Numbered from the stretch's first letter, positions 27,386-35,005 are shown. The stretch is DNA of 59,114 nucleotides from a bacterium (GCA_030693235.1 JAUYBE010000004.1:1-59114); one strand, 5' to 3'. Notes: generated from the letters alone by a model not told the origin. Numbers and translations: made by a program.

Positions 27386-27433
27386 GTTTACGTATATTGT
27401 GCGAAAACACGTCGTCTTTAAACGAGTTATGTG
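27365..27433 (+). other. putative attI-like primary site
   Basis: Degenerate right-half att sequence CTTCAGATAAAATGC...TTGTGCGAAA, then GTTATGTG (27426), which is complementary to CACATAAC at the end of cassette 1. Confidence 0.5.
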
Positions 27434-27519
27434 AAATAATAAAAAATTCTTTTCGCCCTGCGGGTCGATTAAATCGGGGCAAATTTATTTTTTATTTTTA
27501 CATAGCTCACAACAAAACT

Positions 27520-28017
27520 ATGAAAGAAAAATACATTCCATCTTTGGAGGAAGTAAAAAAATCCGAGGAAATGATGTCGCAAGAGGAAAAGAAAATGAGC
27601 GAAGAAAGAGAAGCAACATTCGAAAAAGGTTATAAGGAAGGTGTCAAGAAGGCATACTCAGAGATTGCTTCAAGCATTACTTCCAAACTTGATAATATTA
27701 CAAATCGTGAGAAGCTTGATGAGTTGTATAAATTGCCGTCATTGGCAGGGAGTCAAGAAAGTGAAAAATTGGAGATTGAAGAAAAAGCTCGGGTATTAAA
27801 AGAAGAAATTAAGAAAATGAAAATCGAGGGAGGTATGTATGACGGAGACATAATTGAGATAACGCTTTCAACTGGCGGAGTTGTTAGGGGGATGTTTTTT
27901 GAGGTTGATATCAATTCTGGAGTTATCCGTCTAAATGAAAGAGAGGGTTCAGGTGATATGATACCCATCAGGTTAGTTGAAAAAGTTAGATCACTAGAGG
28001 ATAAAAATAAAAAATAA
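27520..28017 (+). CDS. cassette 1: hypothetical protein, possible C-terminal Sm/LSm-like domain
   Basis: Coiled N-terminus; 'GDIIEITLSTGGVVRGMFFEVD..G.IRL' resembles Sm1 motif. Confidence 0.6.
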   Translation: MKEKYIPSLEEVKKSEEMMSQEEKKMSEEREATFEKGYKEGVKKAYSEIASSITSKLDNITNREKLDELYKLPSLAGSQESEKLEIEEKARVLKEEIKKMKIEGGMYDGDIIEITLSTGGVVRGMFFEVDINSGVIRLNEREGSGDMIPIRLVEKVRSLEDKNKK

Positions 28018-28071
28018 ATTTGCCCCGATTTATTTTCGCTTAATCAGCGAAAAAGAATTTTTTATTACATC

Positions 28072-28268
28072 ACATAACAACGCATATCTGGCTACATCCC
28101 GCCCTTCATTTTATATAAATCAAGGAATGGCGGGACTCCGCCCAAATTTTCATCCCTTAGTTCGATGAAGATTTAGGCGGAGATAATTAAACAAAGCATT
28201 GTCTGAAATCAAAAAGTTTATCCTGCTAAGTCGTGATGAAAACTTCAGATGATGCGTAAACGTTGTGC
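28072..28268 (+). repeat. attC-like site 1 (197 bp)
   Basis: ACATAAC-AACGCATATCTG...CCCAAAT...AAAACTTCAGATGATGCGTAAAC-GTTGTGC. Confidence 0.85.
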
Positions 28269-28311
28269 GAAATCCGCATTTGCCCTAGTGCTAAAAATAA
28301 CATTCAACAAT

Positions 28312-28890
28312 ATGACAACGAAAAACTGTATAATAATTCATGGATGCCCCTCTGACGCAGAAAAAGCAATGGATACTAAAACAAGAACCTACGATAAGCA
28401 TTGGATTCCGTGGACTAAAAGAAATCTTATTGCAAAAAACATAGAAACGGAAACTCCTCTCATGCCCTCGCCTTGGCAACCTGATTATGAAAAATTTAAA
28501 GCTGAGTTCGAAAAATATGCTGTCGGCGAAAACACAATCTTGGTTGGACATAGTTGCGGTTGTGCATTTTTGGTTCGCTGGCTTGGTGAGACAAAGACCA
28601 AAATTTTTAAACTTTTTTTAGTCGCACCGTGGAAAATTCCGCAGGAAAAAAGAAATGGCGCTGATGTGGATTTTTACACTTATCTCATTGATCCGACAAT
28701 AAAAGATAGGGTCGCTAAAATCGTAATGTTTACCGCCGATGACGAAGAGGGTGACGGCAAAAAAAGTTTAAAAATTTTTCATGATGTGCTTGGCGGCGAA
28801 ATTATTGAGTTGCCAGGACGAGGGCATTATTGTTTGGGTGATATGAAAACCGAGGAGTTTCCTGAATTATTAGAAAAGATTTTGCAATAA
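28312..28890 (+). CDS. cassette 2: RBBP9/YdeN-family alpha/beta hydrolase
   Basis: IIIHG, W.PW, LVGHSCG nucleophile elbow, LVAP, DD, GH. Confidence 0.9.
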   Translation: MTTKNCIIIHGCPSDAEKAMDTKTRTYDKHWIPWTKRNLIAKNIETETPLMPSPWQPDYEKFKAEFEKYAVGENTILVGHSCGCAFLVRWLGETKTKIFKLFLVAPWKIPQEKRNGADVDFYTYLIDPTIKDRVAKIVMFTADDEEGDGKKSLKIFHDVLGGEIIELPGRGHYCLGDMKTEEFPELLEKILQ

Positions 28891-28935
28891 GATTTCGGGG
28901 CATCCTTAAATCACGGACGGGCAAATGCGGACATC

Positions 28936-29063
28936 GCATAACACGGCATATCTGGCTCGGAAATTTCACACTTTATAATAAATTAAGGAAAGTGAAATTT
29001 CCTCTCCCAAATTTTTGTTCCGTTTCACTACACAAAAACTTCAGATATCGCGAAACGTTAGGC
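28936..29063 (+). repeat. attC-like site 2 (128 bp)
   Basis: GCATAAC-ACGGCATATCTG...CCCAAAT...AAAACTTCAGATATCGCGAAAC-GTTAGGC. Confidence 0.85.
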
Positions 29064-29201
29064 GACATATTTTTGAAAAATTTGTTAATTGAAATGTTTT
29101 TGGTGGGCTTTAAGAAATAAGGAATTTGATTTTTTTACTATATTTAGTATAATAAGGGGTAATAGAATGATTTATAAATTTTAATTTTTAAAATAACCAT
29201 T

Positions 29202-32667: not shown

Positions 32668-32741
32668 GCCATAATAAAAAGCCTTTTTTATTTTTTTATA
32701 TAATTTTGGCAATTTATTTTACAAATAACTACGAAAAAAAT

Positions 32742-33095
32742 ATGGAAAAATATGAATCTGGAAAAATTAAAGATGAACGATTAAATACTTTCGGAATGGC
32801 GCCGAAGGAATGGCAGGATTTTTTTGTAGCTTTTAAAAAGATAAGAAGTGAGGTTCTTGGTAAAATATTTAGTCTTGATTCGCAAAAGAAAAAAGTATAT
32901 TTGGAAAAAATAAACGAAAAACAAAAAGAAGCATTCTCTTCAGTTGATGAACCTTCTAAGTATTTAATTTACCACCAATCCATAGGTGGTTCAACGGGGC
33001 CAGTATATTCTCCAAAATTAGACTTTGAAGGTGATTATTCGCTTTTAAAATTTTATCAAGAAATTTTGAGAGAGTTAGATGATAACAAAAAATAA
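32742..33095 (+). CDS. cassette 7: hypothetical protein
   Basis: ATG at 32742 inside the cassette shell; no family recognised. Confidence 0.65.
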   Translation: MEKYESGKIKDERLNTFGMAPKEWQDFFVAFKKIRSEVLGKIFSLDSQKKKVYLEKINEKQKEAFSSVDEPSKYLIYHQSIGGSTGPVYSPKLDFEGDYSLLKFYQEILRELDDNKK

Positions 33096-33155
33096 CGGAA
33101 TAAAAATAAATTGCCAAAATTATTTTACATTAAGGAAGAGACTTTTTATGACGGC

Positions 33156-33352
33156 GTATAACAACGCATATCTGGCTACAGGAAAATCACTCAAATGTAT
33201 ATTATGGAATGTGATTTTCCCTCCGCCCAAATTTTCATCCCTTAGGTTGATGAGGATTTAGGCGGAGATAATTAAATAAGGCATTGTCTGAAATCAAAAG
33301 ATTATCCTGCTAAGTCGGGATGAAAACTTCAGATGATGCGTAAACGTTAGCT
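33156..33352 (+). repeat. attC-like site 7 (197 bp, close relative of site 1)
   Basis: GTATAAC-AACGCATATCTGGCTACA...CCCAAATTTTCATCCCTTAG...AAAACTTCAGATGATGCGTAAAC-GTTAGCT. Confidence 0.87.
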
Positions 33353-33459
33353 GAAATAATAAAAAATATTTTTTCGCCCTGTCGGTCGATTAAATCGGGG
33401 CAAATTTATTTTTTATTTTTACGTAGCTCAAATTTAATTAAAAACTAATCAACAAAATT

Positions 33460-33972
33460 ATGAAAGAATCAAAACAATTTGAAGGCACTACACCGCCTCA
33501 AGAGCGTAAAACTAATGAGCCAAAAAATTTTGGCGAGTTTCTTCCAAGGGTCGCAAATTTAACAGGCAGACCAATAGAAGAACTTAAGAAGAGTTTTGGA
33601 GAAAGTTGGTACAATGAAGAAATAAATACAGAACTACTTGAAAAAATTGAAAATGGCACGAAAGAATTTATAGAATGGGCTGCATTAGGAGAAATAGGAA
33701 AATATTCTCATGAGGAAGGTAAATCTAAATTAGCTGATTATGAAGCAGTTGCAATGGCCATGAGAGCCTATAAGACGGCAAAAATATTAGAAAAGCAGAA
33801 TCCAGTTTTATGTGCCGATCATTCAAAATTGGAGGAAAAATTTAATGAATTTGAAAAAGAAATGCAGAAGCTTGAAAAAGTAGATACTTCGGAAAATAAA
33901 ATTGCCCGACAAATTCTACTTCAAGGCAGGAATGCAATGGCTTATTTATTAGACAAAAATCTTGCAAAATAA
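33460..33972 (+). CDS. cassette 8a: hypothetical protein
   Basis: 170-aa helical ORF; no family recognised. Confidence 0.65.
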   Translation: MKESKQFEGTTPPQERKTNEPKNFGEFLPRVANLTGRPIEELKKSFGESWYNEEINTELLEKIENGTKEFIEWAALGEIGKYSHEEGKSKLADYEAVAMAMRAYKTAKILEKQNPVLCADHSKLEEKFNEFEKEMQKLEKVDTSENKIARQILLQGRNAMAYLLDKNLAK

Positions 33973-34029
33973 AAAATAAATTTACATCGATTAGTTTAAC
34001 TATTCGCCCAAATGCGATATAATTAAGGC

Positions 34030-34875
34030 ATGGAAAATAACAGAAATGAAAATACTCACATCGCCATTTTTAAAGGCAAAACCATTAGGAGAACGCTATT
34101 TCAAAAAGAATGGTGGTTTTCGGTTACTGATGTTTGCGGCGTGCTTACCGATAGTTCCGATTCAGGTGCGTATTGGAGAAAGCTAAAACAACGGCTCATT
34201 GAAGAAGGGAGTGAAGTCGTGACATTTTGTCACGGTTTGAAATTGCTTGCTCCGGACGGAAAAATGCGTGAAACTGATTGTGCCAATACTGAAGGCATGT
34301 TCCGCATTATCCAGTCAATTCCCTCGCCAAAAGTCGAACCGCTTAAACGTTGGTTAGCGAAAGTTGGTTATGAACGGATACAAGAAATTGAAAATCCTGA
34401 ATTGGCGACAAAACGGACAAAATTACTCTATAAGTTAAAAGGTTACCCTGAAGATTGGATTGAAAAGCGAATGCGAGGCATCGCCATTCGCGAAGAATTG
34501 ACCGATGAATGGAAAAAACGGGGCGCGGAAACCGACCGCGATTATGAAATCTTAACAGCGGAAATTTCGCAGGCAACTTTCGGCATAAAACCGAATGAAT
34601 ACAAAAAATTTAAAGGACTAAGGCGCGAGAATCTCCGCGACCACATGGATGACTTTGAATTGATTTTAACTATGCTCGGTGAAAGGACAACCACTGAAAT
34701 CCACCGTACCAAAGATTCAAAAGGAGTGCCTCGACTCAAAGACGACGCCCGTCTTGGCGGTGAAGTGGCTGGCACGGCCAGAAAACAAATTGAAAGACGA
34801 ATCGGCCGGCCAATAGTTTCAAAAAGTAATTTTTTGAAAAATAAAGAGATTAAAAGATTGAAAAATAAAAAATAA
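34030..34875 (+). CDS. cassette 8b: Bro-N domain DNA-binding protein
   Basis: 'IRR.....EWWFSV.DV..VLT', 'LKL.A.DGK.R.TD', 'IIQSIPSPK.EP.K.WLA.VGYER'. Confidence 0.88.
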   Translation: MENNRNENTHIAIFKGKTIRRTLFQKEWWFSVTDVCGVLTDSSDSGAYWRKLKQRLIEEGSEVVTFCHGLKLLAPDGKMRETDCANTEGMFRIIQSIPSPKVEPLKRWLAKVGYERIQEIENPELATKRTKLLYKLKGYPEDWIEKRMRGIAIREELTDEWKKRGAETDRDYEILTAEISQATFGIKPNEYKKFKGLRRENLRDHMDDFELILTMLGERTTTEIHRTKDSKGVPRLKDDARLGGEVAGTARKQIERRIGRPIVSKSNFLKNKEIKRLKNKK

Positions 34876-34929
34876 AATTGCCCCGATTCACTTTCGCTTA
34901 ATCGGCGAAAAAGAATTTTTTATTACATC

Positions 34930-35005
34930 GCCCAACACGGCATATCTGGCTCCGCTCCGCTACACCCAAATGCTTCGCGCTTCAGATGATGCGTGAACGT
35001 TATAC
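34930..35005 (+). repeat. attC-like site 8 (76 bp, minimal)
   Basis: GCCCAAC-ACGGCATATCTG...CCCAAAT...CTTCAGATGATGCGTGAAC-GTTATAC. Confidence 0.85.

Follow-up and report, generated by a model that had tools for sequence, protein, structure and literature searches.

Cassette-specific inverted repeats enclose the gene cassettes of an integron-like array in a candidate-phyla-radiation bacterium

Gene content of the array and its integrase

The window analysed here is the whole of a 59 114 nt stretch of DNA (GCA_030693235.1 JAUYBE010000004.1:1-59114) from a candidate-phyla-radiation (CPR; ultrasmall) bacterium. It contains an integron-like platform at 26508-35060, flanked by miaA and thrS, in which a gene for a putative tyrosine recombinase is divergent to eight co-directional cassettes (c1 to c8). 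Every cargo ORF (open reading frame) lies on the + strand, and the predicted products include a serine hydrolase, an EamA transporter, a RibD_C/DHFR-like protein, a methyltransferase, a Bro-N protein and hypothetical proteins. There are eight attC-like imperfect palindromes of 76-197 nt, which start ...ACATCGYRYAAC and finish ...AAACGTTRYRCGAAAT; co-directional cassettes and imperfect palindromes with R''(..AAC)/R'(GTT..) and L''/L' boxes are the features of an integron array. In each cassette the 5' leader is also complementary to the 3' trailer of the same cassette, well beyond the conserved recombination site, and the cargo is thus enclosed by an inverted repeat of its own, here termed the shell.

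The integrase scores 222 bits with NF040815 ('site-specific tyrosine recombinase/integron integrase'). Its match to TIGR02249 is split in two (5-176 and 194-271) and reaches 202 bits against a cut-off of 265. Alignment with IntI1 and a chromosomal Methyloversatilis IntI reveals that about 39 residues, those of the IntI-specific additional (I2) domain, are missing in this protein and in its relatives. The definition of integron integrases rests on this additional domain (PMC9668308), which the window integrase does not have; the domain is placed around patch III, at the I2 helix, by Messier & Roy (2001), as cited in PMC9668308. In a tblastn comparison with plasmids (E<=1e-20), the integrase matched Xer-like and XerA-type enzymes and not IntI1. 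A search of Rfam gave nothing relevant.

Each leader is complementary to the trailer of its own cassette

An earlier note on this DNA had drawn attention to leader/trailer complementarity in c1, c2, c4, c5, c6 and c7, and every pair that it quoted is present. The repeats are more widespread than the 'most cassettes' of that note, as c3 and c8 also have them, giving eight of eight. The trailer arms of c3 and c4 do not adjoin the core, GC-rich inserts of 53 and 66 nt lying in between (Table 1). The note had also placed the shell beyond the 7-bp cores, which holds only from beyond position 12, counting from the cassette end: positions 8-12 (leader CGAAAT, trailer ACATCG) are conserved across all cassettes and so belong to the recombination site rather than to a cassette-specific sequence.

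For the window statistics, the first 12 conserved nucleotides were left out and every leader was scored against every trailer by local alignment, in an 8x8 matrix. The own leader/trailer pair tops both its row and its column, with the sole exception of c1 and c8, which have a common shell. The mean score is 43 for own pairs and 20 for non-own pairs. Against 500 dinucleotide-preserving shuffles, the own pairs reach z values of 3.6-15.6. An independent repeat search recovers the same inverted repeats.

Shells recur in related arrays and are absent from sampled classical cassettes

A search with the integrase identified 20 loci in genome contigs and 42 in metagenome contigs (prefixed L below). 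The genomes of the named relatives are mostly of Patescibacteria (Portnoy-, Moranii-, Nomura-, Falkow-, Buchanan- and Saccharibacteria). Profile hidden Markov models (HMMs) of both attC ends located sites in about 20 non-redundant loci, with 32 distinct cassettes. Shells recur in related arrays of at least eight other Patescibacteria contigs, and complementarity beyond position 12 exceeds z=4 in 24 of the 32 cassettes. Among the 28 cassettes longer than 300 nt, from the window and its relatives, own pairs have a mean score of 41 compared with 18.5 ± 5.5 for non-own pairs, and in 23 of them the own pair outscores all others of its row.

As controls, class 1 integrons were retrieved from plasmids with the attI1 end of the 5' conserved segment, yielding 15 cassettes from eight plasmids (ereA2, blaIMP-34, aadA5, arr-2, cmlA5, aadB, aac(6')-Il, blaGES-24, catB6, aac(6')-31, dfrA1, blaVIM-4, aadA1, smr and dfrA15). 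Omission of a truncated aadA1 left 14, which together with four chromosomal betaproteobacterial cassettes gave 18 that were scored. In these, the ends are complementary over 7-13 nt (median 11; 7-12 nt in the four chromosomal cassettes), and beyond position 12 own pairs score 14.3 and non-own pairs 14.0. Whereas z=4 is exceeded by 24 of the 32 cassettes of the CPR family, none of the 14 from class 1 integrons exceeds it (Mann-Whitney p=5e-7). The statement in the earlier note that this is not a described property of classical cassettes is thus borne out beyond position 12 in the 18 sampled, and has to be modified for the first 7-13 nt from the crossover, where end complementarity does occur classically and where, in classical cassettes, it stops; in most cassettes of the window family it does not stop there. 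The first 12 nt of the shell therefore have a classical counterpart, an integrase-arm-sized R duplex, and the remainder has none. In this sense the shell is an exaggeration of a known principle, by which classical cassettes extend the 7-bp core to approximately 8-13 bp.

The crossover point

Two comparisons bear on where the cassettes are joined. The first and seventh attC sites of the window, attC1 and attC7, share 90-94% identity as far as GTT, and past this point they are unrelated. In the related locus L010, an ORF-less cassette occurs three times with neighbours that differ on both sides, and its bounds are G|TT and A|TT. The triplicate and the GTT breakpoint together point to the classical recombination unit, TT...cargo...attC...G. 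This comparative evidence places the crossover at G|TT of R', and the L010 triplicate is direct evidence, likewise comparative, of cassette duplication or mobility as well as of the crossover point. By the usual geometry of tyrosine recombinases, the bottom strand would be the one exchanged. We also considered a crossover lying on the side of R'', or one beyond the variable bases of the R box, and rejected both: R'' matches the next leader perfectly in one of eight cases and its own leader in three of eight, and the breakpoints fall at GTT.

The L010 cassette has the form TTGTCCAAAATCC-loop-GGATTTTGGACAA, followed by its own site. Its ends are perfectly complementary over 13 nt, around a 16-nt loop, GCTCGCTGCGCTCGCT, and its attC variant of about 130 nt ends GCGGCGCA|TT in place of AAACG|TT.

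Anatomy of the cassette ends

Eighteen cassette ends, designated type-1, were stacked as 30-nt trailer, linker and 30-nt leader, aligned at the core. The R box occupies positions 1-9, with positions 1-3 and 8-9 conserved and positions 4-7 varying as R/Y. Position 11 is unpaired in 18/18 ends and position 10 in 16/18, and at position 12 an A-T pair is invariant. From position 13 to position 24, 15-18 of the 18 ends are paired, and each pair shows 5-12 double-sided changes. Paired cells make up 77.8%, compared with 57.1 ± 1.4 in shuffles (0/500 reach the observed value) and with 38-50% after the partner columns had been slid. For covariation, the stack scores 0.546 vs 0.184. Past position 24 the register is lost because shells vary in length and carry indels.

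The long shells (families A and C, and L010:16080) consist of an inner stem of about 14-16 bp, a hairpin on each arm and an outer stem of 25-45 bp. The c1 leader combines a 12-nt R' arm with an inner stem of 16 nt, a local hairpin and an outer stem of 31 nt. The hairpins are self-complementary and differ between the two arms, and they are at the same place on both.

Trailers of a second type (type-2) are found in about one-third of cassettes. Exactly at positions 10-12 they carry a local hairpin (..CACGCTGCGCTCTCACTCCGCT..) that is GC-rich, conserved and about 45 nt long, and in which CACGCTGCGCTCTCACTCCGCT is the loop motif. The insertion site is the conserved unpaired spot between shell arm and R''. 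That the conserved hinge, positions 10-11, accommodates an extra hairpin is consistent with flexibility where the shell stem meets the R box. A CGCTGCGCTC motif similar to CACGCTGCGCTCTCACTCCGCT is present in the loop of the empty L010 cassette.

The conserved 11-12-nt ends (trailer ACATCGCATAA, leader TTATGTGAAAT; for example 27426-27437 and 28067-28078) resemble the XerC and XerD half-sites of Escherichia coli dif (GGTGCGCATAA / TTATGTTAAAT). Such dif-like ends would agree with a Xer-like enzyme. The cassettes are bounded by inverted 12-bp recombinase arms, and the integrase has weak matches to tyrosine invertase models, so that transposon-like terminal inverted repeats, similar to those of a miniature inverted-repeat transposable element (MITE), or an inversion switch that flips each cassette, had to be considered. 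Either is very improbable. The arms differ between cassettes beyond the 12-nt core, leaving no single transposase site, and target-site duplications were not seen; the cargo is uniformly oriented; and the asymmetry between leader CGAAAT and trailer ACATCG is retained in 31 of 32 cassettes, indicating that inversion is rare at best. Transposon ends and an inversion switch were rejected on the variable arms, the uniform orientation and the preserved asymmetry.

Within a single attC, the L boxes covary across the centre of the site (for example, CGGGATAAAAG/CTTTTATCCCG vs CGGCATATCTG/CAGATATGCCG), while the shells pair across the cargo. Unpaired extra bases occupy the 3' arm of the top strand, corresponding to the 5' arm of the bottom strand (for example in 28936-29063 and 30983-31083). 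They comprise a spacer of 4 nt, AAAC/ATAC, that faces a single A, together with a TT bulge and, in some cases, a G. Classical sites have their extrahelical bases on the L'' side, where they are read by I2; this arrangement is not found in the attC sites of the window. Extra bases on the opposite arm are consistent with an integrase that lacks an I2 reader of extrahelical bases.

attC1 and attC7 have a common L'' box, and their 90-94% identity extends over the 3' two-thirds. Their first internal hairpin stems are wholly different (TCCCGCC/GGCGGGA vs GGAAAATCAC/GTGATTTTCC). As the divergence begins just before a conserved CCCAAAT linker, the sites look modular.

Co-evolution of the arms, cargo and cassette length

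Three shell families were identified in which one shell frames different cargo. Family A comprises window cassettes c1 (165 aa) and c8 (170 aa, and a Bro-N protein of 281 aa) and L050:4780 (294 aa). The c3 family comprises c3 (147 aa) and L015:11723 / L032:5698 (304 aa), and family C the first cassette of L010 (1.1 kb) and L012:12226 (5 kb, four genes). No cargo homology was detected within the three families by BLASTP or tblastx.

In each family, the substitutions by which the genomes differ are present on both arms: AATAAAAAATTC to AATGAAAAATTC and AAATCGGGGCAAATTT to TAATCGGGACAATTTT in family A, TTTTTGAAAAATTT to TTTTTCAATAATTT in the c3 family, and TTTCAAAAAATTTTCAAA to TTTTAAAAAATTTTAAAA in family C. 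The arms therefore do not decay independently. From this pattern it would follow either that pairing is selected or that the arms convert each other, and both would need the arms to meet.

One shell surrounds the whole of each multi-gene cassette (c8, L010:16080, L032:2494, L012:12226 and L005:12436), including cassettes of 1.6, 3.1, 5.0 and 6.3 kb. The three ORF-less cassettes, which measure 40, 44 and 123 nt, are without any extension. Longer cassettes tend to have stronger shells: the Spearman coefficient is 0.56 (n=33, p=7e-4), or 0.42 (p=0.02) among those above 300 nt. As the samples are not independent, the correlation is no more than suggestive of scaling. Together, the substitutions on both arms and the length scaling argue for maintained pairing over a decaying relic.

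That the arms are such a relic, which may record how cassettes are made as the note suggested, is nonetheless one way to explain why the same shell frames unrelated cargo in three families. The attC site with its palindromic arms could be a reusable empty cassette, a chassis, whose arms record its origin and are kept alike by conversion, with no role in recombination. The triplicate ORF-less cassette of L010 would be such an empty unit, and a third, partial arm lies between the two genes of c8. Two unrelated ORFs also take their final codons (KNKK*) and their stop codon from shell A; in c1, the trailer arm covers the last five codons and the stop codon of the cargo ORF at 27520-28017. In family C, a Shine-Dalgarno (SD)-like AGAGGGG in the leader is mirrored in the trailer. 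As a full account of the shells, we consider this unlikely. Relic arms should decay independently, yet both share substitutions, and the inner stem at positions 13-24 keeps a fixed register in 15-18/18 otherwise unrelated shells. Shell strength that scales with cargo length also argues against a relic, as do local hairpins that are not complementary to each other and lie at the same place on both arms in three long families, which suggests conserved structure rather than copying. The chassis concerns origin and not function, and is compatible with the explanation preferred below.

The arms are in untranslated flanks and would be co-transcribed with the cargo, so pairing might instead take place in the transcript, where a helix between the cassette ends could stabilize, process or translationally silence the mRNA. 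The inverted repeat of family C (L010 and L012:12226) is about 95 nt long; its helix reaches the SD-like sequence, mirrored as CCCCTCT in the trailer, and as RNA it would mask the ribosome-binding site. A weak hairpin resembling a terminator lies within the trailer arm of shell A. Several features make an RNA helix improbable as the reason for the shells. The helix begins exactly at the edge of the recombinase-binding arm and continues into the R box, and there is one shell per cassette, not per gene, four-gene cassettes included. G.U pairs are not enriched: they account for about 1% of cells in positions 13-24, and 107 mismatches comprise 19 top-strand transitions, 12 bottom-strand transitions and 76 transversions, counts that do not discriminate between top and bottom strand. 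Promoter-like and terminator-like sites are no commoner than in shuffles (34 vs 29.1 ± 5.9 and 8 vs 6.0 ± 2.4), the sole terminator-like case being the shell A trailer hairpin.

Predicted folding of the cassette ends

Trailer, attC and leader were folded with DNA parameters and 70-nt flanks. When trailer and attC are joined at G|TT to the cassette's own leader, as in an excised circle, the sequence is predicted to fold as one long hairpin, in agreement with the earlier proposal that the attachment-site stem extends past the R box with the ORF as a loop. The predicted order is shell stem, 2-nt loop, R box, asymmetric spacer, L box and branched tip. In six of the eight window cassettes, this circle junction is predicted to be 12-40 kcal/mol more stable than the array junction formed with the next leader. 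The folding differs for c3 and c4, whose arms lie outside the 70-nt flanks, and for c6, where the next leader happens to fit.

In single-stranded segments running from attC through the cassette to the next attC, the shell stem is present in the minimum-free-energy fold of 7/7. Some of these folds are product-like, with the R box paired to the cassette's own other end. Three are clamp-like (c4, c5 and c6, bottom strand), with both flanking attCs folded at the base of the shell stem.

A proposed role for the shell

We propose, with a probability of roughly 0.55, that the shell represents the outer portion of an attC palindrome of unusual length, which the crossover at G|TT splits in two; in single-stranded DNA the shell would re-zip, closing the cassette and stabilizing or juxtaposing the recombination sites. 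The attC palindrome would be much longer than its conserved core, and the crossover, deep in the 3' arm, would cut it asymmetrically. Once the cassette had integrated, the distal part of the 3' arm (24 to about 90 nt) would form the 5' leader of the cassette, while its partner remained as the 3' trailer. When single-stranded, in an excised circle or on a lagging-strand template, leader and trailer could zip together with the cargo looped out. The resulting helix would consist of the 9-bp R box, a 2-nt unpaired hinge (positions 10-11) and, over positions 13-24, a cassette-specific stem with a minimum of 12 bp. A further 20-65 bp would often extend this stem, and in some cassettes each arm would carry a local hairpin. 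Such a stem might keep the AT-rich, mismatch-bearing integrase-binding R arm of 11-12 bp double-stranded in the excised circle. It would also hold the cassette ends, and hence both flanking attC hairpins, side by side. The repeats themselves, with their specificity, covariation, recurrence in related arrays and absence from the classical controls, are observed, as are the crossover position and the missing domain; pairing as DNA in vivo, and its purpose, we infer.

In IntI1, the partner attC is contacted in trans by the I2 helix, at an extrahelical base, and the efficiency of recombination tracks synapse stability (PMC11641012). Because I2 is missing here and the unpaired bases are on the other arm, a DNA-based substitute is plausible; that DNA pairing replaces I2-mediated stabilization is plausible but unproven. 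A more far-reaching version combines the two ideas: a DNA zipper would do the work of I2 and the extrahelical bases, its hinged stem joining the attC hairpins and closing the circle, and the attC with its arms would be an autonomous chassis that gains cargo at its open end. We offer this combination as a doubtful, speculative extension.

Several observations count against the proposed re-zipping of a split palindrome. Eight of the 32 cassettes have no significant shell. In about one-third of cassettes, the type-2 trailers place 40-66 nt between the arm and the R box, and strict continuity of the helix is therefore not required. At the variable R-box positions 4-7, only about 13 of 32 cassettes match their own other end perfectly, and the next leader is matched rarely; given these mismatches, simple co-travel from a perfect palindrome is no explanation. 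The co-evolution of the arms could stem from gene conversion rather than selection. The predicted pairing spans 0.5-6 kb in a minimum-free-energy model that ignores kinetics and single-strand-binding protein. The classical controls are GC-rich Proteobacteria only, with AT-rich and Vibrio-type integrons outside the sample. Finally, in Logan contigs from three groundwater runs, the candidate joints were attC-like repeats of other organisms with short sides, and gave no usable evidence of excision.

Relation to known systems

As in class 1 and sedentary chromosomal integrons, the array has co-directional cassettes, a divergent tyrosine recombinase, an attI and attC sites that are imperfect palindromes with R and L boxes. 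It also has the G|TT crossover of classical integrons, and each cassette opens with bases complementary to the beginning of its attC. Unlike in classical integrons, this complementarity continues for at least 12 to about 90 nt more, is cassette-specific and covaries; there is a conserved 2-nt hinge after the R box; the integrase lacks the IntI-specific domain; and the extra bases of attC are on the opposite arm (L'' is where the aadB attC has its extra base).

The attP(+) site of CTX-phi, a forked hairpin of single-stranded phage DNA, is reportedly recombined by XerCD, as Val and colleagues are said to have described in 2005. The likeness lies in a Xer-type recombinase without I2, a site that takes shape only as a long folded stem of single-stranded circular DNA, and one strand exchange followed by replication. 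CTX-phi differs in having a single phage site with one fixed stem, and neither a cassette array nor a variable helix around cargo. The pdif modules of Acinetobacter plasmids, reportedly treated by Blackwell and Hall in 2017, are likewise discrete gene modules between inversely oriented Xer-type sites, but these are 28-bp double-stranded sites without a hairpin attC or variable extension, and the modules alternate in orientation. Distant leader-trailer pairing with the functional part looped out is also seen in the processing stems of rRNA operons and the fold-back of hok mRNA. Those structures act in RNA, with G.U pairs, whereas the helix described here keeps register with a site of DNA recombination and has no excess of G.U pairs. 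Full-text searches of the literature gave no description of Patescibacteria integrons with an I2-less integrase or of extended cassette-end stems, and we rate the long, covarying, cassette-closing stem as a new form of integron cassette/attC architecture.

The array touches on two open questions, how integron cassettes arise and how attC hairpins worked before the IntI-specific domain; the paradox of attC sites without I2 was posed by Escudero et al. (PMC4792948). Here a natural system combines an I2-less integrase, a long covarying closing stem for each cassette and a stem-site unit reused for unrelated genes. It makes testable the ideas that DNA pairing replaces protein stabilization of the synapse or R box, and that cassettes are built on a reusable palindromic chassis. 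If both were true, a plain Xer-like enzyme could run a cassette system, this would be a living integron without I2, and there would be a concrete model of cassette birth that bears on whether attC or I2 came first (PMC4792948).

There may also be consequences for annotation. IntegronFinder requires an I2-specific integrase profile. Pipelines that need such a profile, and perhaps also its classical attC model, would be expected to miss arrays of this kind, in which case gene mobility in the candidate phyla radiation would be under-counted.

Coordinates and further observations

The features of the array and its relatives are collected in Table 1.

Table 1. Positions of the integrase gene, cassette boundaries, shell arms, attC-like sites and related features. 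Cassette ends are set at G of GTT and C of AAC; positions are those of the window unless a related locus is named.
Feature	Position	Strand	Remarks
Tyrosine recombinase gene, Xer/IntI-like, 271 aa	26508-27323	-	Phage_integrase and SAM-like N domains (Pfam, NCBIfam)
G of GTT	27426, 28262, 29057, 29929, 31077, 31817, 32661, 33346, 34999		
C of AAC	28078, 28942, 29844, 30989, 31650, 32524, 33162, 34936		
c1 leader arm (shell family A)	27426-27500	+	Begins at attI crossover G|TT
c1 trailer arm	28002-28078	+	R'' ACATCACATAAC at its end
c2 leader arm	28262-28285	+	GTTGTGCGAAAT + CCGCATTTGCCC
c2 trailer arm	28919-28942	+	Repeat search, own-pair score
c3 leader arm	29057-29111	+	Score 48, z 9.1; complementary part of about 44 nt starts at 29069
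c3 trailer arm	29736-29779	+	53-nt local-hairpin insert before R'' (29833-29844)
c4 leader arm	29929-29955	+	Leader/trailer comparison
c4 trailer arm	30895-30911	+	66-nt GC-rich insert with conserved CACGCTGCGCTCTCACTCCGCT motif before R'' (30978-30989)
c5 leader arm	31077-31111	+	Repeat search, own-pair score
c5 trailer arm	31616-31650	+	Overlaps final codons and stop codon of DHFR-like ORF
c6 leader arm	31817-31844	+	Repeat search, own-pair score
c6 trailer arm	32497-32524	+	Overlaps stop codon
c7 leader arm (shell family B)	32661-32720	+	Inverted repeat of 60 nt, 80%
c7 trailer arm	33103-33162	+	Partner of c7 leader in the 60-nt, 80% repeat
c8 leader arm (shell family A, about 75 nt)	33346-33420	+	91% identity to c1 leader over 69-nt repeat
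c8 trailer arm	34861-34936	+	Closes two-gene cargo (170-aa ORF and Bro-N protein)
Partial extra copy of outer trailer arm of shell A	33966-33992	+	Between the two genes of c8
Orphan shell-B leader (copy of c7 leader)	34999-35060	+	Array end, past last attC; without cargo or trailer
attC-like site 1	28072-28268	+	
attC-like site 2	28936-29063	+	
attC-like site 3	29838-29935	+	
attC-like site 4	30983-31083	+	
attC-like site 5	31644-31823	+	
attC-like site 6	32518-32667	+	
attC-like site 7	33156-33352	+	
attC-like site 8	34930-35005	+	
Type-2 hairpin inserts	29780-29832, 30912-30977		Also in L005, L015, L032 and L050
ORF-less cassette copies in L010	~10925-11090, 15416-15588, 17821 to contig end		Reverse-complement coordinates

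The partial third arm of c8 (33346-34936) suggests either that two shell-A cassettes have fused or that the trailer has received an insertion. Its Bro-N gene is preceded by a promoter-like site, TTAACT-16-TATAAT, at 33996-34023. The region of the orphan shell-B leader (34999-35074) contains the best sigma-70-like match of the region, TTGGCA-18-TATAAT (11/12). Outside the platform, gatB (24040-25593) is two genes from the array; the classical Methyloversatilis integron (L071) also adjoins gatB, which is probably a coincidence.

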